From: Antedon mediterranea
Lineage: Eukaryota; Animalia; Echinodermata
Direction of reading: 5' to 3'
DNA: 64,000 bases
Assembly: GCF_964355755.1 (NCBI RefSeq)
Contig: NC_092673.1
Span: forward strand, 16,030,948-16,094,947
Part shown: piece after piece, positions 7,913 to 61,200 of the stretch
How the letters are laid out: the number at the start of each line of letters is the position of its first letter
Position numbering within the stretch: position 1 is the first letter of the stretch
Program-made: the position numbers and the translations under genes
The notes under the pieces: generated by a model
Seen by the model: only the letters and a program-made list of their open reading frames with translations
The model's database searches: none
Told to the model about the DNA's origin: nothing

Positions 7913-8483
7913 AAGAGAATGTGTAGGCTTACTTTTACACTAGAAGCTGTCGGCATTAATAATTGTTAAATGAAGACACTGTATTTTTGCAATGGAAAGG
8001 TACGTTTTTAACAATTATTTCAAACAAAAATAACCAGCTCCAATATGTGTTGATATTATTGAAATATGTAACTATTAAAAACAAATTAAAATGTTTGAAT
8101 AGTTATATTGACATACATATATATAACATACTTTATAATCAGAATTTATAGTTCAAACAAAAAGAAAACACTTTGATTTTAAGATATTCTTTTGAGAAAA
8201 ATACTTCAAACTTTCTTAAAAGATTATAAAATCCAAAATTATTTCTTTCTTTCTTTAAAAATTATGAAATCATAAATATTACAATTAAAGCGCTTATTCT
8301 CATTAAATATAATAATAATAATATTTCCATCAATCATCATTCTCATTAAATACACGGGTATAAATGGATTATTTCTTACATTTTAACAGGAAACATTTGG
8401 TAGAAGCTTTGTCAAGGAATGATTTGAAAACAATTAAACAAATCTGTAAGACGCAACCAGATCTTCTGAAATCTATCAATGAG
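7913..8483 (+). CDS. Gene 1 start exon (7913-7999, ATG 7992) and N-cap exon (8390-8483): MERKHLVEALSRNDLKTIKQICKTQPDLLKSINE
   Basis: Canonical splice sites with a phase-2 join (AG+G). Both exons are conserved in the paralogue at 58189-58631. Confidence 0.8.
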
Positions 8484-11400
8484 GTATAAAAACAGATATA
8501 TTTTTATAATATTATCAAAGAAGAAATTCTTTTCATTAAAGTTTAAAATTATAGAGGATGTAATTTTATTTAATAGTTTAAAGCTTTTTTACTTAATGAA
8601 TTACAATTCTTTTGCATTATCACACTGATGATGGAGGTATAACCTGCATATACTGATTAACCACATTAGGCTAAAAATAATAATATAAATACACACTGAT
8701 GATGGAGGTATAACCTGCATGTACTGATTAACCACATTAGGCTAAAAATAATAATATAAATACACACTGATGATGGAGGTATAACCTGCATGTACTGATT
8801 AACAACATTAGGCTAAAAATAATAATATAAATACACACTGATGATAGGGGTATAACCTGCATGCACTGATTAACAACATTAGGCTAAAAATAATAATATA
8901 AATACACACTGATGATGGAGGTATAACCTGCATGTACTGATTAACCACATTAGGCTAAAAATAATAATATAAATACACACTGATGATGGAGGTATAACCT
9001 GTATGTACTGATTAACCACATTAGGCTAAAAATAATAATATAAATACACACTGATGAAGGAGGTATAACCTGCATGAACTGATTAACCACATTAGGCTAA
9101 AAATAATTTGCTAGTGTAATAGGCTAACATTCTATAGATATGCTGTGGTAAACCATTCTATTTTGTTCTACTCATTTATTAATAATGATAATTATGATTA
9201 TTTACCACAATATTTAGCAGCAATTGTTGTTGTTTGTATTGACAAAAAACAAACAATTTCACATAATGTCTGTTGTCAGTATTTATAAACTTTATTATGA
9301 TTCCTTTCCAGGATGGTAACACTCCATTACATTCATATCTGGAGAGAGGATACCCTACCTTAGCAATAGTGACTTGTCTCATTCAGCATGGGGCACCAGC
9401 AACATTGCAAAATAAGGTAATGTACAGGGATTTGCTAGTGTAATAGGCTAACATTATATAGATATGCTGTGGTAAACCATTCTATTTTGTTCTACTCATT
9501 TATTAATAATGATAATTATGATTATTTACCACAATATTTAGTAGCAATTGTTGTTGTTTGTATTGACAAAAAACAAACAATTTCACATAATGTCTGTTGT
9601 CAGTATTTATAAACTTTATTATGATTCCTTTCCAGGATGGTGACACTCTATTACATATATATCTGTGGGGTAGATATACTGCACCTAACTTAGAAATAGT
9701 GACGTGTCTCATTCAGCATGGGGTACCAGTAGCATTGCAAAATAAGGTAATGTACAGGGATTTGCTAGTGTAATAGGCTAACATTCTATAGATATGCTGT
9801 GGTAAACCATTCTATTTTGTTCTACTCATTTATTAATAATGATAATTATGATTATTTACCACAATATTTAGCAGTAATTGTTGTTGTTTGTATTGACAAA
9901 AAACAAACAATTTCACATAATGTCTGTTGTCAGTATTTATAAACTTTATTATGATTCCTTTCCAGGATGGTGACACTCTATTACATATATATCTGTGGGG
10001 TAGATATACTGCACCTACCTTAGAAATAGTGACTTGTCTCATTCAGCATGGGGTACCAGTAGCATTGCAAAATAAGGTAATGTACAGGGATTTGCTAGTG
10101 TAATAGGCTAACATTCTATAGATATGCTGTGGTAAACCATTCTATTTTGTTCTACTCATTTATTAATAATGATAATTATGATTATTTACCACAATATTTA
10201 GCAGTAATTGTTGTTGTTTGTATTGACAAAAAACAAACAATTTCACATAATGTCTGTTGTCAGTATTTATAAACTTCATTATGATTCCTTTCCAGTATGG
10301 TTACACTCCATTACATACATATCTGGAGAATGGATATACACCTACCTTAGAAATAGTGACGTGTCTCATTCAGCATGGGGTACCAGTAGCATTGCAAAAT
10401 AAGGTAATGTACAGGGATTTGCTAGTGTAATAGGCTAACATTCTATAGATAAGCTGTGGTAAACCATTCTATTTTGTTCTACTCATTTATTAATAATGAT
10501 AATTATGATTATTTACCACAATATTTAGCAGCAATTGTTGTTGTTTGTATTGACAAAAAACAAACAATTTCACATAATGTCTGTTGTCAGTATTTATAAA
10601 CTTTATTGTGATTCCTTTCCAGAATGGTAACACTCCATTACATTCATATCTGAAGAGAGGATACCCTACCTTAGCAATAGTGACTTGTCTCATTCAGCAT
10701 GGGGCACCAGCAACATTGCAAAATAAGGTAATGTACAGGGATTTGCTAGTGTAATAGGCTAACATTATATAGATATGCTGTGGTAAATCATTCTATTTTG
10801 TTCTACTCATTTATTAATAATGATAATTATGATTATTTACCACAATATTTAGCAGTAATTGTTGTTGTTTGTATTGACAAAAAACAAACAATTTCACATA
10901 ATGTCTGTTGTCAGTATTTATAAACTTTATTATGATTCCTTTCCAGGATGGTGACACTCCATTACATATACATCTGAAATATGAATATCCTTACTTAGAA
11001 ATAGTGAAGTGTCTCATTCAGCATGGGTCACCAGTAGCATTGCAAAATAAGGTAATGTACAGGGATTTGCTAGTGTAATAAGCTAAAATTCTTTAGATCT
11101 ACTGAAATAAACTATTCAGTGAGAGAAAAAAGTAAGCCCATTAACAAAAATCAAATTTTATTAAAACAAACCAAATTAAAATAATAACTAAACAGTTATA
11201 TATGATTTATGATAACTGATTTAAAGTATACAGTTATCCATCACATAACATTAATGTTTTTTCTTAATGAACAAAAACAATCTACTTGTAATTTTTTATA
11301 TTCAGGTGAATCAGTATAATTTTGTTTAAATACTTTTTACCATAAAATAAATATATATTGCTCAATATGTAGCTGTAAAGATAATAACAATTGAAAATGG

Positions 11401-14400
11401 TCTAATTAATTATAAATATGAAATAAAATGTATGTTGACAAATAATAAAATAGCAAACAAAAATGTTTGTGTTATTGTTAACAAAATTAATAGAATCTGA
11501 TTGTAATAAAAAAAGAATTAGTTAGTGGTAATAACCTGCTCCTTACCTTACAAAAAAATACTTCTGTCAGTATATCCAGCTAATTACAGTTTGAATATGG
11601 CCTTAAAGAGATCCTTTTCCAGCATTTTTTTTTGCAAACATTTTGCCACAAATGGAAGAGAAATGTAAATAATGTTTAGTTTATAGTGGTTTCCAAAATC
11701 TAAAAATGTTTGAGCAATGCAATTGGAAAAAGAAATTTAACATGAAATTATTCTTTTCAAACAGTGCCGTATCTTATCTTATGACTTTTTGGAAAAAATG
11801 ATTCTATAAAGTTGCCAGTTAAAATGTGATATACTAGTAAGTGCCCACAGATGGTTCTCGAATACATGAACTTTGGTAAATAACTGAAATTGTCTAAGTC
11901 GCACTGTACACAAAGCAAATGAATACAGATATGTTGGAATTTATGTAGTCAAATATAATTGTCATGCGGAGAATTACCTTAATTTTGTTTATTACATGGT
12001 ATTGTTCACCAAATTCCTGTCTTGGTACATTTTATTATGGGATGGTATCAGACTTCATGATATGATTTTCATTAAGGCAAATGGTTTAAACTAAATGTGT
12101 TATCGTTAATATCTAACTTAGCTTAATTATGATATTGGTTTCATTGTGTTAAAAATCAGTACTGAAAGTATTTACCAACTTTCTCAGATTTTAATGATTA
12201 CTTACATTAAGTAATAGGCTAACAATCACTAGATCTGATCCATGGTAATATATTATATTTTGTTTTCATTTATCAATAATGATAATTAATATTTTATCAC
12301 ATTATTTAGCAGTAATTGTTGTTGTTTGTATTTACAAAAAAAAAACCCAATTTCACATAATGTCTGTTGTCAGTATTTATAAACTTCATTATGATTCCTT
12401 TCCAGGATGGTAACCCTCTATTACATGACTATCTGGGGAATGAATATACACCTACCTTAGAAATAGTGACGTGTCTCATTTAGCATGGGACACCTAGTAT
12501 CCCCATTTTACACTTTCTCTGGGAAAAAATTAGAAACAAGTGTTTCTCAACTGATTTGTGTCATATGGGGTCTATATATCCACCAAAAAAAAGTTCCAGC
12601 TCATCTGGCCTAGGGAAAGCCGCCATTTTGGATTTTCAAAATGGCCGCCATAAAATACAGGTTTTTGCTCATATCTCCTCTTCTACATCATGCATGGAAA
12701 TGATTTTGGTGGCAAAGTGTATGTTTTGAGGGTCAAGGAATCTAAATACAGCATTTTGAAGTTCACTCAATGACCGCCATCTTGTTTTTTCAAAATGGCC
12801 GCCTTAAAATACAGATTTGTGCTTATCTCAGCTTCTACATCATGTATAGACATGGGAAAATGGAGGTTTTGACGGTCAAGGAATCCAAATACAGCATTAA
12901 TTTGAATTTCACCCAATGGCCGCCATTTTGAAAATCAAAATGGCTGCTATAAAATTTACAGATTTTTCCTCATATCTCAGCTTCTATATCATATGAACGT
13001 AATTTTGGTAGAAAAATATATGTTTTGAAGGTCAAGGAATTCAAATATAGTATTTTAAAGTTCACCTAATGCCCGCCATTTTGTTTTTCAAAATGGCTGC
13101 CATAAAATTTACAGATTTGTCCTCGTACCTCAGCTTCTACATCGTGCATGGAAATGATTTTGTTGGCAATGTTTATGTTTTGAGGGTCAAGAAATCTAAA
13201 TACAGCTTTTTGAAGTTCACTCAATGACAACCATTTTGATTGTAAAAATGGCCACCATAAGCTACAGGTTTTTGCTAATTTATGAGCTACTATGATTATG
13301 ATTTTGCTAAGCCTATGTTTTGAAGGTTACAGAATAAAAACAAAATTCAGCTTTTGAAATACAGTTGGAAAGTGATGACGCGAATAAGTCAATATGTTGG
13401 TGATAATATATGGGAACCACAATGATTATGACCCCAGGAGATACTGTACACAAGAAGATATCAGCGATGTACTGTAACTATATCATTCGCGTGAAGAACC
13501 TAAAAATAAAATATTCTAAAAAAGTTTGTTAGACGACATTTTAAGATATTTTCCAAATCCTAAAGAGAAACATGGCCAACTTTAGTTAAGCATATTCCAA
13601 TCAGATACATTATAGATAAAGCAAGTAAAGCAATTTAAAGCAACATATCTTATGTGACTGAATGGATGGTTACCTAATACACTGGGGACTAACACTACTT
13701 CACCATAACTGGTCTGGATAATGCGATAACTGGACAAATCGACGATAGTTTATGCCGATCATTCTTTTTTATCCAATTAACATGTCAACAGTTTATACAA
13801 TGGTACAGCCACTCTGAAAACGTATATCTAGCTGCTCATCTACCAGTCATAATAATCAGACACGGAGGAGTTTATCTTTTCAGGAGCTTTCTTGGTTATA
13901 TTGGACATACTGGTGGGTTGAGGTTTTGAAGTTGTGCATAACCTACTTTAAAGAGAGCTGTATATTCTAAAGCTCTTAGAGGATGCAGCTATGTATCATA
14001 TAATGATGACACGAGATGAGGATGTACCATTTTGTCTCCAGATATAGACACAGTATAGGACAATTGACTATGATGGCCAATATGCCTGAACGACAAATTT
14101 CCATATACATACAATACAAGATGTTCCAAAAGAATGGATATCATGCAACGTGTTATAATGGTGAAGAATCAGTTTTCAGACATGAGCACAATAGAGAAAA
14201 CCTTATGTATCTTGAAATTTGTCTTTCAGCATTTCCAGATATAGCCTTTCACTTTTGGCATTTTGGCCATGACCAGCTGCTGCAAATATAAAAGCATACT
14301 GTAGATGCTATATCTGAACCTGGAGCTCCCAATTGCACAATCACGCCTAAAAAGTTATACCATCTAATGATACAGCCACACCTTAAATGTTCTTGATATC

Positions 14401-17400
14401 TTTTTGACTTTCAGAGAAAGCTCTTAAGAATCTTTCGAGTTTGACGACAAATGGCAGTTTTCTTTCTCTAACTATTTGCATTACTTTACGTCACATTGGT
14501 TGATCGAAGGTTATTAGGATGGCAGATAAGCAGCTAGATATAAACATAAATGCAGACCATTTAGGGTGACTAGTGTTAATCTCCCAGTGTATTACCATGT
14601 ATTCATAAGATATTACTTGCTTTATCCATAAGTTGTACTTTTAACTGCAAGATGGCCATGCTTCTCTTTATATTTGGAAAATATCTTTACATGTCTATGT
14701 AACTTCTTTAGAATATCTTGTTTATTAGTTTCTTCTCGCGAATGATAGTTACAGTACACTCTCTGGTATCTTCTTGTATACCTCTTTGGTCGTAATCAGT
14801 ATGGAACTCGATCTTGTGATTAACTCACGACGTTGAGATTGTGATAGCAATAGATCTCGGAGACTAGACAAAGGGGATTGTACATAAATGTTGTTATTAT
14901 TATATGTTGTGCCAGTTTGATTGGGAATTTTAAAACTATTACTGTATTTAACAAACTGTATGCAAAAAAAAGCAACATCTAAAGCCAGTGGAGCAGTAGC
15001 CTTCAACTATAAAGTTTGGTCCTAAACTTAGTTATCAAAATCATGTCTTCATTATGTATATGAGCTACGAAATTAGCAAAACCTGTATTTTATGGCGGCC
15101 ATTTTGAAAAACAAAATGGTGGCCCGGTTTTTAAATGAACTTTAAAAAAATGCTGTATTTGAAATCCTTGACCCTCAAAATATATACATTGCCACCAAAA
15201 TCACTTCCATACATTATGTGGAAGCTGAGATAAGAGCAAAAATCTATATTTTTATGCTGGCCATTTTGAAAAACAAAATGGCGGCCATTGAATGAATTAC
15301 GAAAATGCTGTTTTTCGATTTCTTGACACTCACAACTACACTTTGTCACTAAAATCACGTTCATACACGATGTAGAAGTTGAGATGAGTACAAATCTGTA
15401 TTTTATGGCGGCCATTTTGAAAAACAAGATGGCGGACATTCAGTAAACTTCAAAATGCTGTATTTGGATTTATTGACTCTCAAAACATATACTTTGCCAC
15501 CAAAATCATATCCATACATGATGTGGAAGCTGATATATGAGCAAAAATATGTATTTTATGGCGGCCATTTAAAAAATCCAAAATGGCGGCTTTCCCCAGG
15601 CCTGATGAGCTGGAACTTTTTTTTGGTGGATATATAGAACCTATATAACTCAAATCAGTTGAGAAACACTTGTTTCTAATTTTTTCCCAGATTGGCCCTT
15701 TTTAGACTTAAAATAGGGATACTAACCAGTAGCATTGCAAAATAAGGTAATGTACAGGGATTTGCTAGTGTAATAAGCTAACATTATATAGATCTGCTGA
15801 AGTAAACCATTTAATGAGAGAAAAAAGTAAGCACATTAACAAAAATCAAATTTGATTAAAACAAACCAAATAAAAAAATAACTAAATAGTTATATATGAT
15901 TTATGATCTGATTTAAAGTGTACAGTTACCTATCATATAACATAAATCTTTAATTTTCTTAATGAACAAAAAAATCTATTTTTTTAATATATTCAGTTAT
16001 TAATTAACAATTATTGACAACGGTCTAATTAATTGTAAATATGAAATAAAATGCGACAACTACTAAACAACTAAAAATGTTTATGTTAAAAAAATTAATA
16101 GAATCTGATTTTAATAAAAAACGATTATTAATTAATAATGTGCTCCTTCCCTTATCTTACAAAAAAAATGCTTCTGTCAGTCTATCCAGCTAATTATGAA
16201 AATGGCCTTAAAGAAATCCTTTTCCAACCTAGGATCTTTTTGTGCAAACATTTTGCCACAAAAGGAAGAGAAATGTAAACAATGTTTTGTTAGTTTTCAA
16301 AAACTAAATTGTTTGAGTAATGCAATTTAAAAAAGAAAAGTAATATGAAATTAGTCTTTTCAAACTGAATGCTTTTAAGAAAAGTTCCGTCTCTTATCTT
16401 ATGACTTTTTTGAAAAAATTAATTCTCGCTAAAATATAATATACTAGTAAGTGCTCACAGATGCTTCTTGAATACAAGAACTTTGGTAAATAACTGAAAA
16501 TTGCACTGTACACATAGCACTACAGATATGATGGAATTTATGTAGTCAAATATAATTGTCATCCTGAGAATTACCTTAATTTTGTTTATTGCATGGTATT
16601 GTTCACCAAATTCCTGTCTTGGTACATTTGATGATGGGATGGTATCAGGCTTCATGATATGATATGATTTTCATCGGGGCAAATGGTTTAAATTAAATTT
16701 GTTATCGTTAATATCTAACTTAACTTAATTATGATATTGGTTTCATTGGGTGTTAAAAATCAGTACTGAAAGTATTTACCAACTTTCTCTACCATTGAGT
16801 ATAAATTCTAGAAGTTGCACTTAATTTACTGAAATTTCCCTTTACCTAAATTTATATGTAAATTCATTTAACTGCTTATTGGCCTCATACATTACGCTTA
16901 ACATCTAAACATTTGTTTGTACAATTTTATAAAATATGTATTAAATTATTAATGTTCAAATTTTGTGATTGATATTGTACAGTAAGTAGATTTTAATGAC
17001 ACTATACTACATTTGATCCATGGTAAGATATTATATTTTGTTTTCATTTATCAATAGTCGACATTTATGATTATTTACCACATTATTTAGCAGTAATTTT
17101 TTCTATGGTTTGGGTTGACAAAAAAAACCCAATTTCACATAATGTTTGTTGTCAGTATTATACACCAGCAACATTGCAAAGAAGGTAATGTACAGGGATT
17201 ATACAGGGATATTTCATTTGTTTCTGGATAGTATCCAAATATTATTAGCTTTGAAAGTTTATAGTAAAACTATTTGTTGTTTTATATTATGGCTCAAACA
17301 TTTTAACACATCTACCTACTGTTCCAAAGTAAACTTTTATTCAATTTATCTCTCTCTCTCTCAATGTTGAAGGCGGTAGACTATAAACGGCAGCGCTTAA

Positions 17401-20400
17401 GTTTCGGTTTGGATACAGGAGTTATAGGTGGCGCACTGTACAAGTTGATGTCATTTATTAGCAAATAGTAATTTCTATTCACGTCCTAATTTACAACCAA
17501 TGTTAAAAAATAGTAAATCTACGTGTTATCACATGATGCTCTTTCATCCAATCTCTAGATGGTAAATGTTTGAGCCATGACATAATACTGTATGTATGTG
17601 ATGCGTAATTAAAGTGTGTTATATTGTATATCAATAATTTCTCAAAACTACTAATAACTAAACCCATTTTTTTAATAGGATGGAAATACACTTGTCTCAG
17701 TTTTAGAAAGTAACGGGTGGATAGAGGAGCAAAGTAAAACTGAAATTTTAAACTTCTTAGAAGGTAAGTGAAGTTTTAATTATTGAAATTTTAGGATCAA
17801 CTAGTTTTCATTACAAACGATAAAGATTTGATTTCTCATCAAGTGAAGAAGAATGTCCAGATAAAGAAAATTAACATTTATGATATATCATTCACAGGTT
17901 TATTATAGATTAAATAATTCAGTAAGATAGTAGTATACATGGAAGTTGTGATATGTTGCAAGATGTAAATTATTTTGCTATAAATACGATAAAAATAACA
18001 CAAAAACGCAAACTTTAAAATTCCTTGTAAATAAAAATATTAAATAAATCATTTTTCAAATCAAATCAATCTCTTTATTCAATACATCAAAACAGTACAC
18101 ATAACAAAAATAAAGAGATTTTAATGATGATGATGATGATGATTTTAAGATGAAAGGGACCTTCAATAAACCTCAAGGGGCTTTTGATAGGAGGCTTCAC
18201 TTTAAACTAGTTACAATAATCGGACGGGGGACATGCATTGTTAAGGAATATTTGAACTTTATTAATTGCACATAAATGTAAAATGTAGATTTTTTTTTTT
18301 TAAATCTAATCTATTTTATATATAATGCTATGTACAATTGATATTCACATTCAAGGCAAACAATTTACGATAGGAGAAGATAAATATTGAATATAAAAAT
18401 CTAATTTTCTTGTTAAATCCCAGTTTTTGTTTCCACAATGGATGAATTTCCTTCACACATTTTAAATAATAATTCGTCTTCTTCGAGGAGCTGAATCACC
18501 GGATTTTCAGCGTGCCGTGCGTACCAGGTTACTACCGTAAATGATGGCGCTTAATTTAAAGTTCTTAGTAGATATAGCTCTATTATCTATTAGCCTTATA
18601 AGTTATCCCCTTAATAGATATAGCTCTATTACCTATTAAGCACCTACTAATAAGTAGATTTTAGGTAGATTTTAGATAGTTCCTAATAGGTTTTACCTCA
18701 TTAGCATAATTCAAAACCCCCACTAATAGTGTTAGATAGATTTTTCACTATTTTCAATCTGTGAGTAACACAGTTGTATGCATCTATCTATTGTCTACTT
18801 ACAATAGCTATACAATGGGCTACCAGCAACCTATTAATATACATAAACAAACTGATAATAGCCAGTAACTTTTAATAAGCTATCTATTTTATACAATAGA
18901 TAGATATGGACTACCAGATAGCTATTAGAAATCTATGAGTATCATATCTATCTACTTATTATAGCTATACAAGATAATAATAGCCAGTAACTGTTAATAA
19001 GCTATCTATTTTATACAATAGATAGATATGGACTACCAGATAGCTATTAGAAATCTATGAGTATCATATCTATCTATCTACTGTCTACTTATTATAGCTA
19101 TACAAGACTACCAATGACCTATCAATAGACTATAAAGAAACTGATAATAGCCAGTTAAATATTAATCAACTATCTATTTTATAGCTGGGAAGTAGTCGTT
19201 CCATCGTTGACTCATTCAGTTAAAATCCTTAGTAGTCGAGATAAAAAGGTCTACTAAAAAACTACTGAAAATAGAGCTATTTCTACTTAAGTCTACTTAA
19301 ATTCTACTAATTTTTTTACTATGGGTAAAACCAATAGACAAATTCAAACTCCTCCTTCCCACATTTGCATTCGAGGAAAACAATTTACGATAGGAGGAGA
19401 TAAATATTGAATATAAAAATAAAACATTTTCTTGTTAATCCCATTTTTTGTTTCCACAATGAATGAATTTTCTTCACACATTTTTAAGCCAGCTTAAGAA
19501 TACTAATTTTCTGTATGTAAAATTAAGCATCATACATGTGTTATTCTAAACACCAAGTCCCACAAAGCATAACCAAGATCTACCAAGTGTATAAAGAACA
19601 GTGCCTTTATTTAATTGGTTACTGGTCATAAAACAGAATATAAATAAAAACATTTAAAAAGTTCAAGGCATCTATATATAAATTATGGTTAATTCTGACA
19701 TAGGCGAGCACAATGCAAAAACTTCGGTACAAATCTCCGCCTTGGATACCTACCTTATCTATCCGAGATGTACCGTGAAACGTAGATTTGATAACATTAG
19801 TGTGCACGCCGACGCTATTGTTCCATATTTATATCTTAGGAAGATATTATAAAGAGTTTTTTAACAACATTTATGATTTCAACATTAGATTTTCCTCTCA
19901 ATTTCAATTCTTCCCGGTCAAAGTAATTTCCGGGTTTAAGATAAGTTCACCTTACAACAACCTTCAAATATTTTCTCTCTTTTAAACACAAGGGAGCAGT
20001 TAAAATAATAGATTTGACCCTAAAGGTGACTGGAAACAGGCACTTTCCATCAATCAATACAGTGTCCCTTTGGAAGACGAAAAAAAAATCAGATAGTAGG
20101 AGTGCAGCTTAAGTTGGCCATTAGTCATAGCCATTTCAGTTTTTTGTTTATTTTAAAACATACCACGCGCGTGTGTGAAGGTACAGTAGTTAAATTATAC
20201 TGCAAATTAATAAAGATCAAATTAAATATACGTCATAAAGATTGAATCAGAATATATTGTGGGGAATAGTATTATAAAATTACATAGGGAGATTTGATGA
20301 TAAGACATTTTTCGAGTGAAATCCCGATAGCTGAGTTTTATTGAGGAAGCTTGCAGGAATAACTGTAGGCTATCTTCCTGTGTCCCGTTAGGACCGAGAT

Positions 20401-23400: not shown

Positions 23401-26400
23401 TTAAGGAAAACACTTAATTTAAGGGTAAAACTTAAGGGTAAAAACAATCATAAATATTCATGAGTTGTCCCATTGTCCAATCACAGAGGATTTAATTCCC
23501 CTATGGTCCAATCACTTTCCTCTCTAAAACTAATTTGCATATTTAAAAAAAGATTAAGGGGTTGGGGGGACGGGGAGGATGAAGAGAAAAATGTATAGAC
23601 AATGGTAGTCAAAACAAAAACAAATGAATATTAAACCTAGACTAATGTGTATGAGGATCAAGAAAAATAGGTCTAGCCTAGATGCTACTAACAAACCAAC
23701 ATTCTGTGTAGGCCTAAACCTGTCTGTATTGAGGCATATGCATCCTAGGCTGGTTACTGGGCAGACCAACAGGGGGCCTAGCGTCTCTACCTAGCCTACT
23801 AGAATGGGGCTAATTTCTATTACAACGAAATGGGAAGCCATCTTCCACAAAAATAATGGCAGTCAAAACAAACAAATAAATCAATATATAGGCATAGACT
23901 AATTTGTATGGGTGGGGATCAGCAGAAAAAGGTCTAGATGCTACTCAAACCAAACATGAATCCTAGGCCGGTTAGTGGGCAGACCAACAGGGGGCCTAGC
24001 ATCTCTACCTAGCCTAGACTGGGGCCATCTACAAGTAGGCATAGTACTCGCACATACAGAATCGTCAGCACAACCAAGGTACTGAATAGTTAAGGGAACT
24101 TTTAAGGGACCACCTCTGAGGTCCCTTAAAAGTTAAGGGGAAAATAGACCAAGTTAAGGGTTTCCCTTAACCTTAAACCCTTTGTGAATACCACTTAAGT
24201 GAAACCCTTAATAATAATATTTTCTTGATTTAAGGGAAATCCTTAGGATTTAAGGGAAATATCTCACTTAAGTGTGATTGGTGAATACGGCCACTGGACT
24301 ATATTATTAAAACTAAAAAATTTAACATCCCTCGAATAAGCACCTCCCTCAAATGACCTCCGCCTCCCCAAAGGGCCCTACCAAACAATAAAAACTATAC
24401 TTTAAAATGTTATTAATCATCTAAAACACTGTGAAACAAAGTAGTTTAGTTTTACGAATGTCAAGCATTTTCAATAATGGTAACCGACAGAAAACGTATA
24501 AGGAGAACATTATCATTCCGAGAACCATCGTCTACACTTCCTAGAGGGGGAGCGAGCGAAGCGAGCTCACCCTCTAGTATTAAAAACTTACGATAGGTGG
24601 TCAATAATTCCTACTGCCAAATTCTGAATCATACCAGTTATTCATTTCAGGATTACTTTATTTTCACTTTACACAGTGAAACCATCCTAATCAACCGTAT
24701 GGTGCTAGAAATGATTTAGATTCAGGATCTCTGTCAAAAATCGTTGCATAACGCCTATATGTTTGGATGAGTTTGAGTTCACACAATTTTTAGGACATAA
24801 TTAATAACTGTAGTTGTTAACTGTATACATTTTAGTTTAAAAAAATACATTATTATTATAGTATATCCAGAATGAATGAGGTTTACCATTTTCATGTATA
24901 GTCGATTGCTTGTACACAGTCACCCACAAGCTTTTATATAACCTTATACCATTGAAAAAGTTTAAAGATACCATATGACAATTCAAGAGTTTTGCCAAGC
25001 TGTGACTTTTAATATAGTGTTTTTTTATGAAAATATGTAATATGTAATATTTTTGTTTGGGTATTTTTTTAGATTTACCAAGTACTGTTGATGAGCAATT
25101 TCAAACACAATTTCAGAAACCGACAAGTGACGAACAGAAAACAAAACTTCTTAAGCCAGAGAGTGGTGAGTTTAAGAATCATAAGAGCTGCTGTATGTTG
25201 TATGATTGTATCTATATATAATTTAACACAATTGTGATTAAAATGGGATTTCAGTAAGGAGAGAATTAGACGCTAATGTTATTTAAAAAAAGCATTATTT
25301 CTGAGCGGTACTGTAAAAAGGCGAAAAGTGTGCAACTAATAACAAATGGAGAGATTTTATTTATCATAAATAAAACAAACAGTTGATTGTTTCCATCCAA
25401 AATACTGTAATAATGGAATGGAGCTAGTTTGCAGATTTATGTGGCATGCTTGATTGATGATTTTTTTTTTTTTTTACTTTATTTACTCCAGATGTTTTAA
25501 AAATCTATTAAAATCTTGATTCAATTTTCAGATATTCCATGTGATATTGCTGCTCGTGAATTAGAGTATCAGGAAGCTTACAAGGAAGCTTTGAAAGGAG
25601 GATCTGTCGCAGTCAATCTTGGAATGCTTAAGGTGATTGGACAGGAAGGAGTGGGTAAAACATGCCTCATAAATGCCTGTCTTGGAAAGATGTAAGTAGT
25701 TGGACAGTAAAATTGACATTACAAAATACATGTAGGTACTGCCTAATTATAACAATAATAGATAATAGAATTAAATTTTAACATTGTTTTGTAATTTTAA
25801 ATGAAAGATCATTTTAATTGTTGACTAAATAACTGATTTAAAATGTGTATTTTATAAATAAAGACTATTGAAATAGTAACTACTGGTATCTATAATTAAA
25901 AAGAGAAAATTGAATTTTACAGCACTAAAAATGAATGACATTCATTGTTGGTTTCAAATTATTATATTATTATTATATGTATCTCAGATTTGAGGAAGAA
26001 CATAAAGTTACAGATGGCATAGCAGTGATAAGGACTGTAAGCACAACATGGAAAGAGGCTAAAGCTGATAGTGGTAAACATGAATACAAATTAGCATATT
26101 ACTCTTCCCATCATCATAGTCAATGTAACAATATTTATCTTTGATCTCATTATCATAGACACAAACAGGCCCACAATGAAACTGAGATGTTGAATAGAAT
26201 TCAATAAATGCATACAACTGTAGTATGATGTCAACAGTCATATTTTCACATACATACAGCAATTGTTACTCCATGATCCCTTAACACACAAGCTATTGTT
26301 TGTTGATGTACTGTAATTTTACATTAATTAATCAATCAGTTAAAATATTGTCACCTATCAATGTATCTGCTGTAATAATATGTGCAAATGTCTTTTTTCT

Positions 26401-29400
26401 CTACAGGTAATCCTTTAAAACAGTATACAAAAATGGTCACTGACAAATTGAGAGAAAAGAAAACTGTAAACGTATGTCAATACTAGCGTAATAAAAACAT
26501 AATATAAATAAAGTATCACCTACAGGACTATTTCAAACCAGTCACTTAGGCTTTCTTTCTAAATGAATCAATGAGGCATTATGAGCAGCTATTTCATTTT
26601 TTTTGCTTCAATCCTTTTAAAATTTACTAAAAAAATTTATTTGGTTTTGCTTTTGAGAGTAAACAATATTAGTTTTCTCTTATATTAAATTGTAAACAAT
26701 ACTGTATTTAACTTTGAATAAACATTTATTTCATTTTTATATCCATATATTGTTTTTGTTTTATGTGTCAGATTGACATGAAACCACCTGTAGATGATGA
26801 TGATAATAATGACAACAATGATGGTGGTATTGTTGTTGACTACAATAACGATGACAACAATGATGGTATGTAAACATTTATTTCTTTTTAATATCCATTT
26901 ATTTTATGTGTAGATTGACATGAAACCACCTACAGATGATGATGGTATTGTTGTTGATGACAACAATGATGATTACAAAACTGATGACAACAATGATTAC
27001 AACAATGATGGTATGTAACTTTCCCTTAAATTCTAATTATTATTACATTTTTGTAGTAAAAGCACTAATAAATAAGTTGCAATCATCAGCTTGCAATTTC
27101 TGTCATATTAAACATCTATTGTCCCCAAAAAACATGAAAAATAAAGATTATTAAAATCAGACTTTGAATAGATTATTTTGTAGTTAATCACTTCTGTAGA
27201 AAAAAAAGGAAACAACTAAGGTTTTCACTTATAAAATAACAAAATAAATGGTTAAATTTTACCAAATACCCATTGACTGGCAGTCAATTTGACTTTTTTT
27301 TTTCAATCCAATTTTTAGTCGCGTGGAAGCGACTCTATAGTTCACTATGTCGGTTGGTCGGTCTGTCTGTCTGTCTGTCTGTCTGTCGGTCTGTCTGTCG
27401 GTCTGTCTGTCTGTCTGTCGGTCCGGTATCACTATGCGTTTTATCGCTTTATGACCTTATCTTGATATCAGTTTAATCTAGCTAAATCAATTTTTCACAG
27501 AATATTCCTTATGGCCAGGAATCGATGTGGTTATGATTTCACGGTGCGCAATAAAAAATTACGCGGTCTACGCACGATTTAACGAAATCACGTTTGTAAT
27601 CATATCTTAACAACCATGAATCACAATTAAATAAAATTTGGTACTCATAAATTTCAGGGCATAAATCATCATATGGCAATACAATTACGTGCGTAGCGCA
27701 TGTAACGCATGCGTACGCGCGCCTAAAATTTTCAAAATTTATTTTCGATGAAATAAGAGTACGTTTCAGGCAATTTTAAGCGTTTACAAAATTGCCATGA
27801 GTGCGCAGATTTTTGCGCGCGCACTGCGCGTTAAATGTTATTGCGCACTCTTTTTGCCCGATTTCTGTTTTCTTGACTTACTTTTCAACTCGAAATTACG
27901 TTATACGAGCACGTCAAAAGTGACAGGCTACGCACGTGTAAATTAAAAAAATATAAATGTTTTTAAACATTTCAACATTTTTAAACATGTTCAGTAATTT
28001 CGGTCAGTATAGTTCACTATGTCGGTCGGTCCGTCTGTCTGTCGGTCGGTCTGTCTGTCTGTCGGTCTGTTTGTCTGTCGGTCCGGTATCACTATGCATT
28101 GTAGCACGCGACTTAATGGCTGTTGGCCTTGTTTTTATAGTGGATAACTATTAGGTGACATTAAAATGGCATATTAAAAAAAAAAATTGTAACCATTATT
28201 TTTTCAGGAGGACGATACATCTTTAAATTCATAGTTATATAAAGTTAGATTTTCCAATTTAATGTAACTAAAGAAGTATAAAATTATGTTATCAGATTCA
28301 TAACTTAGAGGCAACCTATCTGTGTAACAATTATGGTGACCGTAATTTGGAGAAAACAAAGCGTCCTACTCCTAGACATAGTCTACAGACGCTGTACACG
28401 CAGGCTTGGTGGGCATGTTTCCTAGTTAGGAAAGTTAAAAAAACACCTAATTAAAAACTTAGAAGAGGCTTACAAAGATGCTTATTTTTTTTATGAATCT
28501 AGAAGAATCAAAGTGAATTCACAGTCCTGGTGACCGTCCCGGGGCGAAAGCTCATTATGATGATAATGAAGACAACTATACTCATAGCAACTTTTTAACT
28601 GAGTCACTGAATACTATGTTGACTTAAAATGTTAAAATAATGATGCTTGTTACGCCGTTTGTGGAATGACCAAAACACTTGTTTTCGCTACAGGTACTGA
28701 TACAGCTACTCAAGCTATTCCATTTGATACAGATCAACAATTAGATAAAGATGTAATCAAGGAAGTTAAGGAAAATAAGGAGACTTTGAAAGAAACATTC
28801 AACATCTGGGACCATGGGGGACAATTAATCTACCATGGTCTACATCGGGTAAGTAGGTTTCTGTATAGACTAACATGATTGTATGGCCATTCAGTAATTG
28901 CAAACCTCTTTCCATGGTACTTCATAGTAATATATAATATTTTAATATTAGATTCTTGTCATTTCATTGGAGGATTGTGGGTCACATGATATTCAATAGA
29001 CATACTATTAAACTTTTAAGTCAGATTACATATTCTTATGTTACACAGTGAGCAACCGAAACATGGGATGCAAGAATAGACTGCGTGTTAAAAAATCAAT
29101 CTGTATTGTCACGTCTATAATTGTTCTACTCAGCGTCCATTCCTGTCTTCTTGAATAGTTTAGGCCTTGGCCTTGGCCTAGCCTCTTGTTAAAAGTATAA
29201 CACACCTACTATAATTGTTTGCCTTCTGCCTTCTTGAATAGTTTAGGCCTTGGCCTAGCCTCTTGTTGATGTTTATGTATAATACATCTACTTTTAACAA
29301 GAGGCTAGGCCATTGAAAAGGCAGAACTCTAATTTTAGAGAGGGAGTAAAACAATTGGCAACATACAGCACACACTACTGGTTAATGAAACGTGATCAGT

Positions 29401-32400
29401 CAACAACAGCCTCTTGAAGAGTGTGTGGTTAAATGTTCACTGTGAAAATATGCGCAAAACAAAGTTGCAGTACTGGCACACATACCTGTATAATGACATT
29501 GCACTCTTGATGACATCATTAGGGGAGTAATAGAACATTTATTTATATCATGTGACCCATAATCCTCCAATCAAATAAAAATAATCTACTTTGGGGTGTT
29601 ATAATATACAAATAATGAATGTTTATGAGTGCAATGTATTGAAAAATAATTTCATGTGATAACAGTAGAACATTTCATCTTTCACTAATGAATTTTTTGT
29701 TTCATTGCATGAATATAAAATATTCATTATTTGTATATTATCCATGACTAATGTTAATATTAAACATTTTCAGTAAGTTTTCGCCACATTAATTATCAAA
29801 GAATTTGTATATGAAAGTCTTTATTATATATCAAGGTCCACATACAATTTAAAATAATATTTGTTATGTTGTCAGAAGGCCTTAAAGAATATTAATTAGT
29901 CAATATCTGAATATTTTTGCAGATGTTCATAACACTACAAGCACTATACATTGTTGTGTTTGATCTCAGTAAACCATTGGATGATCTTGCTACTTTCATT
30001 GATTCAACTGAAGTAAGTGTTTCTAGATGCAATAAGGCATTGAGATTGAACAAATCTTCTAATTTATAAGAACATGCATTTTATGCATTAAAAACAGTTC
30101 CAAATAAGATGTAGTAATGAATGCTTTCAAAAACTAACCATTTCAAGTTTCACTGTGATTAAGTGTTTTCATAATTTTTTTTATACAGGAAACATCTAGA
30201 CATCATTGGACCAATCTCCAGTTCATATTATCTTACATCCTGTCAGTTTATTCTCATAGTCGTATTGTGGAAGAAGATGAAGAGAATGAAGTTGACAAAC
30301 CAACTATCCTTATTGTGGGTACACATAAGGGTAAGCTTGGTAAGACTGAAAAACAGCAAAATGATGAGGTTAATACTTCTTTTGTTTCTATATTATTATA
30401 AATAGCCACAACCAAAGATACATTGCAGTTGTAAATGTTTTTAAATATGTATTACTTAAAATAAATTACAAAATTGACACATTCTTATTATGATATAGGT
30501 GTAAACTGTTATTAAAATTATTTACAAACAGGCAGAAAAGGCGTTTAAAATTATTCAAGATGTGCTTAAAACAAAACCATATGGAAATCATGTCTACCAC
30601 AAATATTTTGCCATTGAAAACAGCCAACCAACAACAGATAAGAGCTTTAGTGATCTCAAACAAGTTATTGATGAACTTATGAAAGCTTTAGAAAAGCCTT
30701 TTCCTTTAAAGTGGATGCGTTTTCGATGTGATCTACATGATCTAAGAGGAAAAAAACACCCCTCTTTTTCTTTGTGTCCTTTAGAAGAGGTAAATGTTAT
30801 TTGTTTTGTTTTTGTTCTTTTTTTTCAGAAAAGAACATTTTGGGAAATATTAAGTCGCAATATATCTATCAAGTATCTAAAAAAAAAAAATTTATGTTTC
30901 CAAATATAAGTACCCTTTAATTAAAAAATGTCTATAGATAATTAGATTACTATATCCAAAACCATATTTTCATCTCAGATATTTGCTGCCATTGTTTTAT
31001 TTATAAATTGTGTGTTTGAAAATAATAAGGTAATTAGCCATTGAAATTCAATATTTAAAACTATTTTTTCATGTATTACCCACATGTTACAAAAACTGAA
31101 TATTATTTCATTTTTTTTTTATTCTGAATAATACTAATTATTATTTCTTTTAGATCAAAATTCTGAAAAGTAAGAATGGTATTGTTGAAAAAGAAAAATA
31201 CAAATCAGTCCTGCTTAACTTCCTGTACGATCTTGGTGAAATTGTTTACATGCCTGACAACAAATTACTAAGGAATAAAGTCGTGCTAGATCCGTTGAGG
31301 CTGGTTGAAATTGTCACCAAATTTGTAACTGTGGTTCCCCCAAAATATCCCGTAAGTAGACTCATGTAATGTCTTGAATTGTAAAAACGTGTTGCCGTAG
31401 TATAATTACTCCTGTTCTGTGTAATTTATTATTCCTTATAGCAAAGAGTTTGCCTTTAGTAATATTTGATAGAGATGCTTAACATTTTCTATAGATAAAA
31501 AAAAGTCATTTGTAATTTATTGTAATTTTTTTACAAGTTTTAATTATTTCACTTTTAATATTCTGCTTTCAATCTATTATAATTGAAGCACTATAAAAGT
31601 GAATAGCAAACTAACTTGGAGTAATTTCACAGTTTAACCCTTTCACTGCGTGTATTACCGGGTATAAACATGTCGTTGATCTCCATATAACCATCATTAC
31701 CGAGTACACTATATTTTTGATAAACTTAAATATATTTGCAATGTTTTAAAACTATTTTCCTGCACTACATGCAACCTCTATATTTTTTAATATCGTCGTA
31801 TCGTACCATTTTCTTACTCCAAACGGTAGACCAACCTTTTACCCACCTCAAAAATATTTACAAAATTATCTCATTTAGTAGGTTTTTGCAATTTATTAAA
31901 AATCACCTGTCTCTCAATGTTATGCACAGTGAAAGGGTTAAACCACGATACTGTATTATACCAACACATGGTTCATCCATATTCTAAATGCTTACTGTAT
32001 CTATTGCCGTCATCCTCACAACTGTTATAAACACAAAATACGATGCATAATTGATAGTTGGTGTTTTTTTTAGTCCGCTAAATTTAGAAGATCTTTTGAT
32101 AAGCTTGACAAAGGCATACTGGAAGAAGACTTGTTGCGAAAATTATGGAAAGATAGTAAAGTTGATGACGAAAAGAATTTTGAGTTCCTTGTAGCACTGA
32201 TGATTCAATTCGGTTTTATATGTGAGAGAAAGACAACCAGTAGCCAAGATGTGGCAAGTACATCTATAGTAGGTTATGTTTCTTTAATCTTTCATTTGAT
32301 GCATGTAAGATTTGGAATAAAAAGTATTATTCTAATAGTTTGGATTTAAATGTTGAGACAAAGTTTGAATAAACTTTCTAGTGAAAATGGCTAAATGATA

Positions 32401-35400
32401 GAGTATCTTTAGTTTGTTTAAAGTAATCTAAATGGCATCGTTACGAATTAACAATTTCAGAAATCAGTTGGAAAACGATCCTTTTTTGTACCACTGCGAC
32501 TTGCTATCAAGACAAGTCAAGTGAGACAAGTACCTGATGATTCACAATCTATCAGCAGACCTATCTATTACGACTTTGAGGGATATCTGCCAGACGTATT
32601 GTTTCCATATTTAATTATTGAATTCCTTAACAAATTTCAAAAGGAAGGAGTTAACCCAATACTCGCATGTAATTATGCAGAACTTTACCTCGACGAAAAT
32701 CATCATGTGACTTTGTCTATTGACAAATTTATTACTAAGAATGATGAGCGAAAGTTCTTGTTAAAGGTAATATATAATCTCAAATGTTCAATAAATATCA
32801 CTAAATTATGAAAGTTAAATATTGTTGCTTAGTCTTTCCCTGATCTGTCATGTCAGAATCTACTTTAAATGCATATAAAACTAAAACTAAATTCTGATAA
32901 CAAAACATTACATCTATTTTTACTTTCTAGATGGCTATTAAAAGAACAGATTCTTTTGATGAAACGAGTAAAGAGGAGCCTTCAGCTGAAGCATGTAAAT
33001 TGGTATGTATCTATACCAGTTACGTTCTCTATCTATTTGGAGGTAGTTTATGAAAATACACATAGAAAGTTTTCTCCTCAATTTTTTGTCAGGTTTGCTT
33101 GATGTCTGAAAATTTCTGCATATACTGATTTTAAAAACCAATTACATATTACTTTCCAACATTGCATTGTATAGTATAATAATGAATGTTTATGAGATGG
33201 ATGGTAAGAATATTTTATGAGTTGAAAGATTGACTGCACTATTTTTAACAAAGCAGAGCCGAAAATAGAGCAGTCAATGAATAACATATTCTCTCCATTC
33301 AAAGAATACAAAACATTCATTATTTATTTTATAACACACCTATTTTTTATTAAATTTATCCATCGTAAATCAGTGACGAATGTTAGGCCCGGGAAGCTAG
33401 GTCATTTAAAAAGGCGGTGATCCAACTTTGGACACGGAGTAGAACCGTAAACAGCGTAAACAAATTACATCCATGTTCTCTTTTATTTTTGTAATTGAAT
33501 TGTAAGTAATTTTAATATGTATCTGCCTATTAAAAGATTTATTCCCAATCAAGTTTTCAGATTTACACCATAAATCTAAAAACATTGCCTGCCTCACATT
33601 ACATAAAATGTCTAACTTTGTAAGCTACTGCACCATTGATGTGTTAAATTCAATTAAATTCAAATCAACATTAAATTTATATCTTTAGGTTTTGTCAACA
33701 GTTGAGAAGTCATTCGAGCAATCTAAAGATGGTGGTAGAAGAGGGATTCCATTCAAGAGATGCATTCCTTGTCGGTGTAGTGATCAATTAGACAAAAAGC
33801 ATTTTCAAATTCTTAAAGATTTCCAATGCAGGAAGTTTACGTGCACAGAAACTGGCAAGTCTGTTACGATGGATGTCACATGTTACAAGCGGCTGTTTGG
33901 AGGTAAGAGTCATTAAATTTATTTATTTTTATTAAGTACATTTTCATTAATACACTACTTTCTTCATGAAGGACTCTCACTCATCCCTAGAGCACAGGAA
34001 ACTGAAAAACAAAAGGCTATTTCTGTTCTATAAACAATTTGTGACCTATTTCTGCAAAAAAGTGACATGTTTAAATAATTATAGAATAGAGAAAGAGGAT
34101 ACTGTACCTTATTTGAAAATAGACATATTTGATAATACTCTTCCAGTAGTAGTACAACAATCATTATTGATAATCTATACATTGTTACAACATGCTGCTA
34201 TTAGCTGTGATATCTTCATTCCTCTTACCAGTAGTAGTACTATCAAAATCATTATTGATAATCTATACATTGTTACAACATGCTGCTATTAGCTGTGATA
34301 TCTTCATTCCTCTTACCAGTAGTAGTACTATCAGAATCATTATTGATAATCTATACATTGTTACAACATGCTGCTATTAGCTGTGATATCTTCATTCTTC
34401 TTACCAGTAGTAGTACTATCAAAATCATTATTGATAATCTATACATTGTTACAACATGCTGCTATTAGCTGTGATATCTTCATTCCTCTTACCAGTAGTA
34501 GTACTATCAGAATCATTATTGATAATCTATACATTGTTACAACATGCTGATATTAGCTGTGATATCTTCATTCCTCTTTCCAGTAGTAGTACTATCAGAA
34601 TCATTATTGATAATCTATACATTGTTACAACATGCTGCTATTAGCGGTGATATCTTCATTCCTCTTCCAGTAATAGTACTATCAGAATCATTATTGATAA
34701 TCTATACATTGTTACAACATGCTGCTATTAGCTGTGATATCTTCACTCCTCTTACCAGTAGTAGTACTATCAGAATCATTATTGATAATCTATACATTGT
34801 TACAACATGCTGCTATTAGCTGTGATATCTTCACTCCTCTTACCAGTAGTAGTACTATCAAAATCATTATTGATAATCTATACATTGTTACAACATGCTG
34901 CTATTAGCTGTGATATCTTCATTCCTCTTACCAGTAGTAGTACTATCAGAATCATTATTGATAATCTATACATTGTTACAACATGCTACTATTAGCTGTG
35001 ATATCTTCATTCCTCTTACCAGTAGTAGTACTATCAGAATCATTATTGATAATCTATACATTGTTACAACATGCTGATATTAGCTGTGATATCTTCATTC
35101 CTCTTACCACTAGTAGTACTATCAGAATCATTATTGATAATCTATACATTGTTACAACATGCTGCTATTAGCTGTGATATCTTCATTCCTCTTAGTCTTA
35201 CCAGTAGTAGTACTATCAGAATCATTATTGATAATCTATACATTGTTACAACATGCTGCTATTAGCTGTGATATATTCATTCCTCTTACAAGTAGTAGTA
35301 CTATCAGAATCATTATTGATAATCTATACATTGTTACAACATGCTGCTATTAGCTGTGATATATTCATTCCTCTTACAAGTAGTAGTACTATCAGAATCA

Positions 35401-58267: not shown

Positions 58268-61200
58268 ATGGAAAGGTAGGTTTCTTTAATTTTATTATTT
58301 CAAATCAAAAAGATTAACCTTCAATTAATTTATAGTTTAAATGAAAAAGATAACAATTTAAGATATTATTTGTAGAAAAATTACTTTTCAAATGTTCTTA
58401 AAAGATTACGAAATCATAAATATTACAATTAAAGGGCCCATTTTCATCGAATTTAATGATGATATTATTTCCATTAATCGTCATTTTCATAAACTAACGT
58501 AACACTTCATTATAATCTTTTATAATCATTTTAACAGGAACAAATTAGAAGAAGCTTTGCATAGGAATGATTTGCAAACAATTAAACACATTTGTAGAAC
58601 ACAGCCAGATCTTGTGACATCTATCAATGAGGTATTAACAATATATATATATTTTCATAATATTAACAAAAAGAAATTCTTTTCATTGAAATTTAAAATT
58701 TAAAATTTTTTACTACATTATTTAGCTGTAATTTTTGCTGCTATTTATATTGACAGAAAACCAATTTCACATAATGTCTGTTGTCAGTATTTATAAACTT
58801 TATTATTTTAATTCCTTTCCAGGATGGGGACACTCCATTACATGAATATCTAAGAACAGTAAATCCTACCTTAGATATAGTGACTTGTCTTATACAGAAT
58901 GACACATCTGCAGCAACATTGCAAAATAAGGTAATCCACAGGTATTTGCTAGTGTAGTTACGGCAACCATTCTCTGCAGTAAACCATTCTATTTGTTTAT
59001 CAATAATGACAAATAGGATTTTTTACTACATTATTTAGCTGTAATTTTTGCTGTTGTCAGTATTTATAAACTTTATTATTATGATTCCTTTCCAGGACGG
59101 GGACACTCCATTACATGAATATCTGAGTAAAGTAAATCCTACCTTAGATATAGTGACTTGTCTTGTACAGAATGACACATCTGCAGCAACATTGAAAAAT
59201 AAGGTAATCTACATGCTAGTGTAGTAGGCAACCATTCTCTGCAGTAAACCATTTTATTTGTTTATCAATAATGACAAATAGGATTTTATACTACATTATT
59301 TAGCTGTAATTATTGCTGTTGTTTATATTTACAGATAAACAATTTCACATGATATCTATTATCAATATTTATAAACTTCATGATTTTGATTCCTTTCCAG
59401 GATGTATATTGGAAATTGACTATACTATAGTTATGTGCTTAAACCATTTGAAACAAACTAATTTGCTCAGAAAGCCAATTCCCTCCAGCCAAAAGTAATC
59501 TTTGCTCCCCTTTTGATTTATTTCTGGTTCCACTCCTGGGTACCCTGATTTCAGTTCCATTTTGAATTTGTCATCAAAAAGAGCAATTATATATAATGTT
59601 TATTTCTGGTTCCACTCCTGGGTACCCTGATTTCAGTTCCATTTTGAATTTGACATCAAAAAGAGCAATTATATATAATGTTTATTTCTGGTTCCACTCC
59701 TGGGTACCCTGATTTCAGTTCCATTTTGAATTTGTCATCAAAAAGAGCAATTATATATAATGTTTATTTCTGGTTCCACTCCTGGGTACCCTGATTTCAG
59801 TTCCATTTTGAATTTGTCATCAAAAAGAACAATTATATATAATGTTTATTTCTGGTTCCACTCCTGGGTACCCTGATTTCAGTTCCATTTTGAATTTGTC
59901 ATCAAAAAGAGCAATTATATATAATGTTTATTTCTGGTTCTACTCTGGGTACCCTGATTTCAATTCCATTTTGAATTTGTCATCAAAAAGAGCAATTATA
60001 TATAATGTTTATTTCTGGTTCTGCTCCTGGGTACCCTGATTTCAGTTCCATTTTGAATTTGTCATCAAAAAGAGCAATTTTATATAATGTTTATTTCTGG
60101 TTCCACTCCTGGGTACCCTGATTTCAGTTCCATTTTGAATTTGTCATCAAAAAGAGCAATTATATATAATGTTTATTTCTGGTTCTGCTCCTGGGTACCC
60201 TGATTTCAGTTCCATTTTGAATTTGTCATCAAAAAGAGCAATTATATATAATGTTTATTTCTGGTTCCACTCTGGGTACCCTGATTTCAGTTCAATTTTG
60301 AATTTGTCATCAAAAAGAGCAATTATATATAATGTTTATTTCTGGTTCTGCTCCTGGGTACCCTGATTTCAGTTCCATTTTGAATGTGTCATCAAAAAGA
60401 GCAATTATATATAATGCAAACTATAGATTGATTATTAATTACTTTTATCTTGTTACAAAATGTGTTCATTAGCATCATACTCTTGTGTAGTAGGCTAACA
60501 TTCTATATAATCTTTAAAAAAGATGGGGGTTTGCTCATATAGCCTTTCACCTTGACCGTTTGACCATTCACCAAATTTTCAAAATGTGTATACCAAGCAA
60601 AAAATGATTGTTTGACCACCCTAAACCAATTTCTGAAGTCAAATTCTCTGGAACTCAAAGTGCATACAAAAGTTGATCTAGCTTCTACAGCATATTTAAT
60701 TATGACCATTTTATATCTGTTTTCTTTTTATTAGAACAACCTAATAGCACACATGATGTGTATAAATTAACCAATCAAATCAGATACACTTAGGTGTGTT
60801 ATAATACTGTATATGTAAATGTATGTATTTTATAGGATGGGAATACATCTGTGAATGTTTTAGAAAGTAACATGCAGATGGTTTACCAGGAAAGAAACAA
60901 GATTTTAAAGCTCTTTGACAGTAAGTGAAGTTTTCTATTAAAGTTTTTATTAATAAACTAAAGGTCTGCCAGTTTTTAATTTTGTTCTAAAATGGGAGTG
61001 ATTAAGTTAAAGGGGGATTCTGGGTTTAAAATTGCTTTTAAATATCGTTTATTTATTAAATAAAAAATATTATAACAATATAGACATTTCAGAATGAAGA
61101 AGTAATAACGAGAAATTAAAAAAATTAAATTTCATATACATTTTAGGGTAAATTCATGGAAAGTCTGTTTTTTAGCAGCTTAGGGAAGCTCATTAATATT

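Follow-up and report, generated by a model that had tools for sequence, protein, structure and literature searches.

Six ankyrin exons with near-identical introns at the likely front end of a Roco gene in the feather star Antedon mediterranea

How does a row of neighboring exons come to differ so much more from one to the next than the introns that separate them? The question is raised by a locus of the crinoid Antedon mediterranea, contained in the window analyzed here (the whole stretch of DNA, 64,000 nucleotides of contig NC_092673.1). An earlier note on this DNA had described a hypervariable array of ankyrin exons with homogenized introns and had proposed that it is a natural DARPin-like library.

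Anatomy of the exon array

Tandem Repeats Finder placed a tandem unit of 324 to 330 bp, in 6.1 copies, at 9106-11098. When the units are cut at TTCCAG on the acceptor side and GTAATG on the donor side, six stop-free ankyrin (ANK) exons appear on the forward strand, at 9312..9416, 9636..9746, 9966..10076, 10296..10403, 10623..10727, and 10947..11051 (exons 1 to 6; 105, 111, 111, 108, 105, and 105 nt), all of them in phase 0-0 and every one a multiple of 3 in length. Between them, within 9417..10946 of the same strand, lie five GT-AG introns of exactly 219 nt each, starting at 9417, 9747, 10077, 10404, and 10728. Re-derived in this way from the splice signals, the anatomy is the one that the earlier note had given, and all the peptide variants that it listed for the six exons were found. 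Its range for the array, 9107..11095, was right for the six units but left out a dead seventh exon (from 12406) and the remnant of an eighth (ca. 17163). Upstream of exon 1 there is a partial sixth copy of the intron, 206 nt long, adjoining a 71-bp minisatellite (6.9 copies, 8621..9107, unstranded) that has taken the place of the 5' portion of the intron preceding this exon.

The exons of the array are ankyrin repeats, i.e., 33-residue helix-loop-helix units with the TPLH motif. The Pfam cut-off for Ank (PF00023) was passed by three of the four exons scanned, with the fourth at 19.6 versus 21.1 bits, which upholds the identification made from the letters alone. Contigs from four public sequencing runs overlie the bins of the array, and all four runs, one of them presumed to be RNA, also cover the introns and a transposon described below (7850-26600). 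No match to the predicted splice junctions was present among the 15 contig joints listed; these contigs are DNA-like and uninformative on expression.

Divergence of introns and exons

Variable sites amount to 7 of the 206 intron bases common to all six units, versus 21 of the 99 gap-free sites of the exons (Fisher test, P = 1.6e-6). The earlier note had put forward a comparison of intron, synonymous, and nonsynonymous divergence as a check; the mean pairwise distances are 0.014, 0.040 (pS), and 0.136 (pN), respectively, with the exons far more diverged. As a control, the unit-to-unit distance (p) of six noncoding tandem arrays in the window is 0.023 to 0.041, versus the 0.014 of the array introns. 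The introns are as alike as the local satellites; their likeness is thus ordinary for this genome, and the anomaly, and the signal, is the excess of change in the exons. The control satellites come from dense minisatellites (units of 57, 62, 69, 82, and 88 bp) found at 34138-46711 and 59517-60416, in and around both this gene and its tandem neighbor. Purifying selection on the intron everywhere is ruled out by that neighbor, whose introns are merely 85 to 89% like the array intron, indicating that the intron has been homogenized within the array and not conserved everywhere.

The minimum number of changes per codon is 24 nonsynonymous and 2 synonymous, over 74.7 and 24.3 sites (binomial P = 0.029), counted in 33 gap-free codons and leaving aside the 2 to 4 indel-bearing loop codons of each exon. 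Synonymous and intron rates did not differ significantly (P = 0.24). A GY codon model with a single omega and no site model (IQ-TREE) gave an omega of 3.5, a value for which the six related sequences supply just 2 synonymous changes and which recombination can bias. The lnL was -271.40, versus -274.14 at omega = 1 (2 delta lnL of ca. 5.5, P of ca. 0.02), and the profile is flat upward, with a lower bound of ca. 1.2. The excess of amino acid changes in the exons that had been pointed out earlier is borne out by these counts.

Variable positions and the ligand-binding face

The concave-face classes were taken independently from Table 1 of PMC8415598 and comprise 8 of the 33 positions of the repeat. 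They hold 14 of the 24 nonsynonymous changes, at positions 1, 3, 8, 11, and 12, and the remaining 10 are distributed as 4 convex, 4 basal, and 2 core. Permutation of positions gave P = 0.005 for the concave enrichment (0.021 without the core positions), in agreement with the clustering on the ligand-binding face that had been claimed. No variation is seen among the six exons at concave positions 2, 32, and 33, and the exon indels sit in the inter-helix loop. Six repeats from three RefSeq paralogues, independent of the array counts, vary most at positions 1, 8, 11, and 12 and in the loop, with a mean entropy of 0.93 at concave positions versus 0.19 to 0.28 elsewhere and a second half that is almost fixed. 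For P0009, the paralogue closest at the N terminus, the AlphaFold model (pLDDT 86) matches DARPins with a TM of ca. 0.79, a fold match that belongs to this paralogue and not to the window's own spliced array. The likeness to a DARPin library holds only in part, given that of the six positions randomized in ANK-N5C (PMC4308713) four vary in the array whereas two are fixed, and that the 10 changes mentioned above are off the concave face.

The gene downstream of the array

The six-unit array is likely the front end of a GTPase and death effector domain (DED) gene of the Roco type. A model of 25 exons and 1,190 codons without a stop, with GT-AG at all junctions, gives the order ankyrin-ROC-COR-2xDED, and all its parts are on the forward strand. 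The predicted end of the first coding exon (7992..7999; ATG, M-E-R) was placed by frame and GT donor, and the N terminus is the same as that of the RefSeq paralogue P0009 (MERKHLVEAL). The array is flanked by an N-terminal capping-repeat exon that ends in phase 0 (8390..8483), the homologous segment of which is helical in the P0009 model, and by a C-terminal one that starts in phase 0 (17679..17763; 79% to residues 76-103 of P0010). They are followed by exons for a linker and the ROC GTPase (25073..30368), with G1 GQEGVGKT and G3 WDHGG, and by others for the end of ROC and COR (30532..33902), supported by Pfam COR-A on two exons (E 2e-6 and 0.006) and by tblastn with P0002 and P0013. A further exon codes for two DEDs (36114..36650; Pfam DED, E 9e-10, in two stretches). 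Single-exon Pfam matches (Roc, E 0.002; COR-A, E 2e-6) are under the whole-protein cut-offs; the gene model is 70% identical to P0002 and 90% to P0072, both of which pass the Roc and COR cut-offs. No RefSeq protein identical to the gene was returned, the best being P0072, at 90% over 723 aa.

By its predicted domains, this is a Roco protein in which COR directly follows ROC. The core is ROC-COR, and neither a NACHT nor an NB-ARC domain is present in the gene. An N-terminal Ser/Thr kinase domain is likewise absent, the model starting with the N-cap exon, as do P0009 and P0013. Neither a signal peptide nor a hydrophobic stretch (19 residues, above 1.56) is present in the model. Between its DED pair and that of P0001, a DED-NACHT (NLR-type) protein encoded on the same contig, identity is 70%. 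The earlier interpretation of the array had missed the gene itself, a predicted Roco GTPase with DEDs, whose identity makes the immune reading concrete.

In the predicted ROC, the G1 and G3 motifs are accompanied by THKG as G4 (ROC exon 30189-30368), likewise found in P0002. The usual G4 motif carries an Asp, which is absent from THKG. The ROC domains of P0006 and P0014 have THMD/THVD, versus THKG in the class of this gene, a class whose nucleotide specificity may differ. The ROC insert contains two duplicated Asp/Asn-rich exons (26772-26865 and 26914-27010), both from phase 0 to 1, which are likely mutually exclusive: one alone fits the frame, and a model using both was discarded for its frameshift. 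Modeling of the exons 3' of the DED exon is ambiguous. An 18-bp repeat at 37699-38107 reads (SSGAGV)n on the forward strand, in frame after the DED exon, and may be a coding exon of low complexity, comparable to the repetitive linkers found in P0006, P0007, and P0014. At 43877-44027, there is a candidate last exon homologous to the hydrophobic tail of P0075, with most of the hydrophobic stretch gone. Of the two ROC domains of P0013, the second is the closer match to the first ROC exon (68%, versus 34% for the other), and the caps and ANK exons resemble the N terminus of P0013; hence, the predicted gene looks like a domain chimera.

Paralogues and a tandem neighbor

Homologue searches returned proteins of Antedon mediterranea and Anneissia japonica as top matches, and the comparisons with paralogues used RefSeq proteins. 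There were 17 ROC-COR matches, 13 from Antedon on one 36.19-Mb contig, 2 from Antedon elsewhere, and 2 from Anneissia, and related ankyrin repeats appeared in 9 Antedon proteins on 5 contigs. By these matches, the predicted gene belongs to a lineage-specific cluster. A second, tandem ankyrin-Roco gene on the forward strand (58536..63671) has two ANK exons with homologous introns, runs off the window, and matches P0013 (XP_071947615.1) across six exons. At 59204-59420, this neighbor has a third intron copy with its acceptor, beyond which come sequence that is not ankyrin and a satellite of 82 bp, i.e., a dead third unit. The RefSeq models of the cluster (P0013, P0071-P0081, P0009, P0011, and P0012) often split the ankyrin part from the ROC-COR, and P0013 has two ROC-COR modules in tandem. 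Cluster proteins have near-identical cores and differing C-terminal modules (DED-like or a hydrophobic tail). Another Antedon protein, P0007, has at least 11 related ankyrin repeats, with inter-helix loops that vary up to ca. 16 residues, and no Roc/COR match.

Dead units and history of the array

Downstream of the array, ANK exon 7 (12406..15746, forward strand, in two parts, 12406-12494 and 15725-15746) retains its acceptor intact and carries an in-frame TAG, and it is split by the insertion of a DNA-transposon-like element of 3,230 bp (12495..15724, unstranded) that has inverted arms (277 nt) and has duplicated 3 bp of its target. The element has TAG...CTA ends and 153-bp subterminal repeats, and near copies of it (ca. 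99%) are present in one public sequencing run. Presumably, it is related in appearance to Academ DNA transposons. Exon 8 is a remnant of 22 nt (17163..17184, forward strand) that has kept its donor and lost the acceptor and most of the exon by deletion. With an intact acceptor and a stop in exon 7, the gene is intact only if this exon is skipped, and a full predicted protein must come from splicing of exon 6 to the cap exon, bypassing both exon 7 and the exon 8 remnant.

The short intron of the array (219 nt) aligns with the two ends of the 1354-nt intron that follows exon 6 (11052-12405), over its first 53 and last ca. 165 nt; this long intron is itself 82 to 88% like the intron after exon 7. 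Probably, the short unit arose from an older and longer one through a deletion, and amplification came afterward. Among the exons of the array, the pairs 1/5 and 2/3 are near-identical, with 2 nt of difference in each, and the other pairs differ at 9 to 17 of 99 nt. Exons 1 and 5 are not adjacent, and exon 4 looks mosaic: its head is closest to exons 1/5, and its tail differs by 1 nt from exons 2/3. Incompatible pairs of informative sites are 22 of 91, whereas a PHI-like permutation for recombination on 14 informative sites was not significant (P of 0.62 to 0.67). The gene conversion or unequal crossover invoked earlier is thus favored by the pattern of the exons and the incompatible pairs and not by the permutation. 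Exchange between units by one of these routes is suggested, and recent duplication combined with strong selection and recurrent mutation may also produce the pattern.

A putative germ line diversified sensor

Our preferred reading, held with moderate confidence, is that the array provides the ankyrin exons of a predicted Antedon Roco intracellular immune sensor, the surface of which would be diversified by duplication and exchange of units in the germ line under positive selection. The immune function is one that we infer from the company of domains. A deletion would have turned an intron of ca. 1.35 kb into one of 219 nt, and the resulting unit of ca. 325 bp would then have multiplied, with unequal crossover or conversion keeping the copies alike, as in the satellites of the window. 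Gains, losses, and swaps of units would then preserve frame and fold, since every exon corresponds to a single complete repeat and is in phase 0-0. Selection would keep or fix those exon variants that alter the ligand groove, at positions 1, 3, 8, 11, and 12 and in the inter-helix loop. By analogy with the known properties of Roco and DED domains, the groove may bind a foreign protein and the ligand may switch the ROC-COR dimer, after which the DEDs would cluster and recruit a death or inflammatory pathway of the FADD/caspase-8 type.

Could the array also work as a combinatorial generator of receptors within one animal? The exons of a feather-star family of cytosolic ankyrin-Roco-DED proteins would then be mixed in each individual by exon skipping or by somatic exchange or rearrangement via the near-identical introns, with paralogous exons as a reservoir and cell-specific arrays as the outcome. 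Any subset of exons stays in frame, the six have a common acceptor and donor context, exon 7 must already be skipped for a working gene, the frame makes the two duplicated exons of the ROC region mutually exclusive, and alternative LRR contents are described for an Ectocarpus ROCO (PMC11378527). However, the one-repeat-per-exon layout needs no skipping, splice contexts so nearly identical offer hardly any scope for regulated choice, and the window contains no recombination signals or reverse-strand spare exons (all blastn matches are on the plus strand). One repeat per in-phase exon is, besides, a common and old layout of ankyrin genes. On balance, mixing within one animal seems unlikely.

The array might instead be a copy in decay, the product of recent tandem amplification within a gene already poisoned by exon 7, in which the differences would come from older paralogues or from relaxed selection. 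There is damage enough around it: the stop and transposon of exon 7, the deleted exon 8, the broken third unit of the neighbor, and a hydrophobic tail reduced in comparison with P0075. Several RefSeq paralogue models (P0009, P0011, and P0012) are fragments, and the lower bound of omega is only ca. 1.2. A gene in decay would nonetheless hardly be expected to keep six exons without stops, indels that are all multiples of 3, an intact scaffold, and a 25-exon frame without a stop, nor to have changes ca. 10 times denser in the exons than in the adjoining introns and concentrated on the concave face. We regard decay as quite improbable.

We give a still slimmer chance to a non-immune arms race driven by the same evolutionary engine, be it conspecific self/non-self recognition, gamete recognition, or conflict with selfish elements. 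In oyster bindin, tandem domains show positive selection together with intron recombination and alternative splicing (PMC5712786), and homogenized repeats of fungi act in allorecognition (PMC4986451). Against this, the predicted protein has no signal peptide, which fits a cytosolic ligand better than a surface one, its DED pair is common to NACHT proteins of Antedon, and a large lineage-specific cluster fits the birth-and-death families of immunity. That the array is an artefact of assembly is very improbable: although the window is rich in tandem arrays and no contig examined spans this one, the six units all differ from one another and their indels keep the frame, independent RefSeq protein models contain related repeats, and contigs of the four public runs fall on the array bins.

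Comparison with known systems

DAPK1 is laid out as ankyrin, ROC-COR, and death fold, in that order. The predicted Antedon gene has the same order of parts as DAPK1 and the invertebrate ANK-Roc-COR-death proteins (Mytilus P0065, by Pfam), but it differs from DAPK1 in having no kinase domain and DEDs in place of the death domain and in belonging to a hypervariable, lineage-specific, multicopy family.

The closest parallel in design is in brown algae, where ROCO genes have one LRR per exon, inactivated spare exons, gene clusters, and selection on the concave face (PMC3341825, PMC11378527). The LRR-ROCO genes of Ectocarpus and Saccharina, which have been proposed as immune receptors, have in common with the gene predicted here an N-terminal repeat array before ROC-COR, one in-phase repeat per exon, inactivated repeat exons in introns (exon 7 and the exon 8 remnant in Antedon), and clusters with many broken members. 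They also have concave-face positive selection, for which the Antedon figures are an omega of 3.5 and enrichment P values of 0.005 to 0.02, from a small sample. In contrast, the repeats are LRR there and ankyrin here, in an animal (an echinoderm) and with a C-terminal DED pair, no reverse-strand exons were found here, and the introns here form a tandem unit of ca. 99% identity. The one-repeat-per-exon LRR-ROCO arrays of Ectocarpus cited in the earlier note are confirmed, whereas the "conserved introns" attributed to them were not found stated in the available text of PMC3341825 and PMC11378527.

Fungal NLRs with ANK/TPR/WD repeats of high internal conservation (identity above 85% over 100 aa), such as Podospora HET-E and Pa_3_8560, have near-identical ankyrin repeats, repeat-number polymorphism among individuals, concerted evolution, coupling to a death effector, and positive selection on the concave face, at the inner helix and hairpin, and such conserved repeats are described as just 0.8% of metazoan ANK/TPR/WD repeats (PMC4986451). 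They differ by their NACHT/NB-ARC switch, versus the ROC-COR GTPase predicted here, where the repeats are separate exons with homogenized introns. Oyster sperm bindin is an animal example of tandem binding domains diversified through intron recombination, changes in repeat number, and positive selection on the binding site, but it is a secreted gamete recognition lectin whose recombining intron is highly variable, while the Antedon protein is predicted to be cytosolic and its introns are homogeneous (PMC5712786). DARPins and ANK-N5C have a fixed scaffold with capping repeats, variable residues in the hairpin and helix 1, and the fold matched by P0009; they are engineered, and the Antedon repeats depart from them in the two fixed positions and in a loop length of 4 to 9 residues across the family (PMC4308713). 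By the domain test, the predicted gene is a ROCO and not an NLR or a DAPK1, and it would function as the algal system does, from other parts. A mainly open-access search of titles, the starts of abstracts, and the available text of PMC8195603 and PMC9334734 found no ankyrin-Roco exon array described in an animal, and no paper on Antedon ankyrins was found in the literature search.

Implications

The locus suggests that crinoids, which of all echinoderm classes have been studied least, possess a rapidly evolving and apparently undescribed family of candidate receptors for intracellular immunity. A design known from brown algae and fungi, i.e., a shuffled repeat array, an NTPase switch, and a death effector, would have arisen in an animal from other parts, which in Antedon are ankyrin exons, ROC-COR, and DEDs common to NACHT proteins. 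With its scaffold fixed, the array shows at which ankyrin positions, and in which loop lengths, natural selection has introduced variation. Since the work on Ectocarpus, the question has been whether exon arrays diversify in the germ line only or also within the individual, and a compact array of 2 kb with six distinguishable exons makes it directly testable. If mixing within the animal were true, an invertebrate deuterostome would possess, in this array, the natural counterpart of a DARPin library, used to detect non-self inside the cell.
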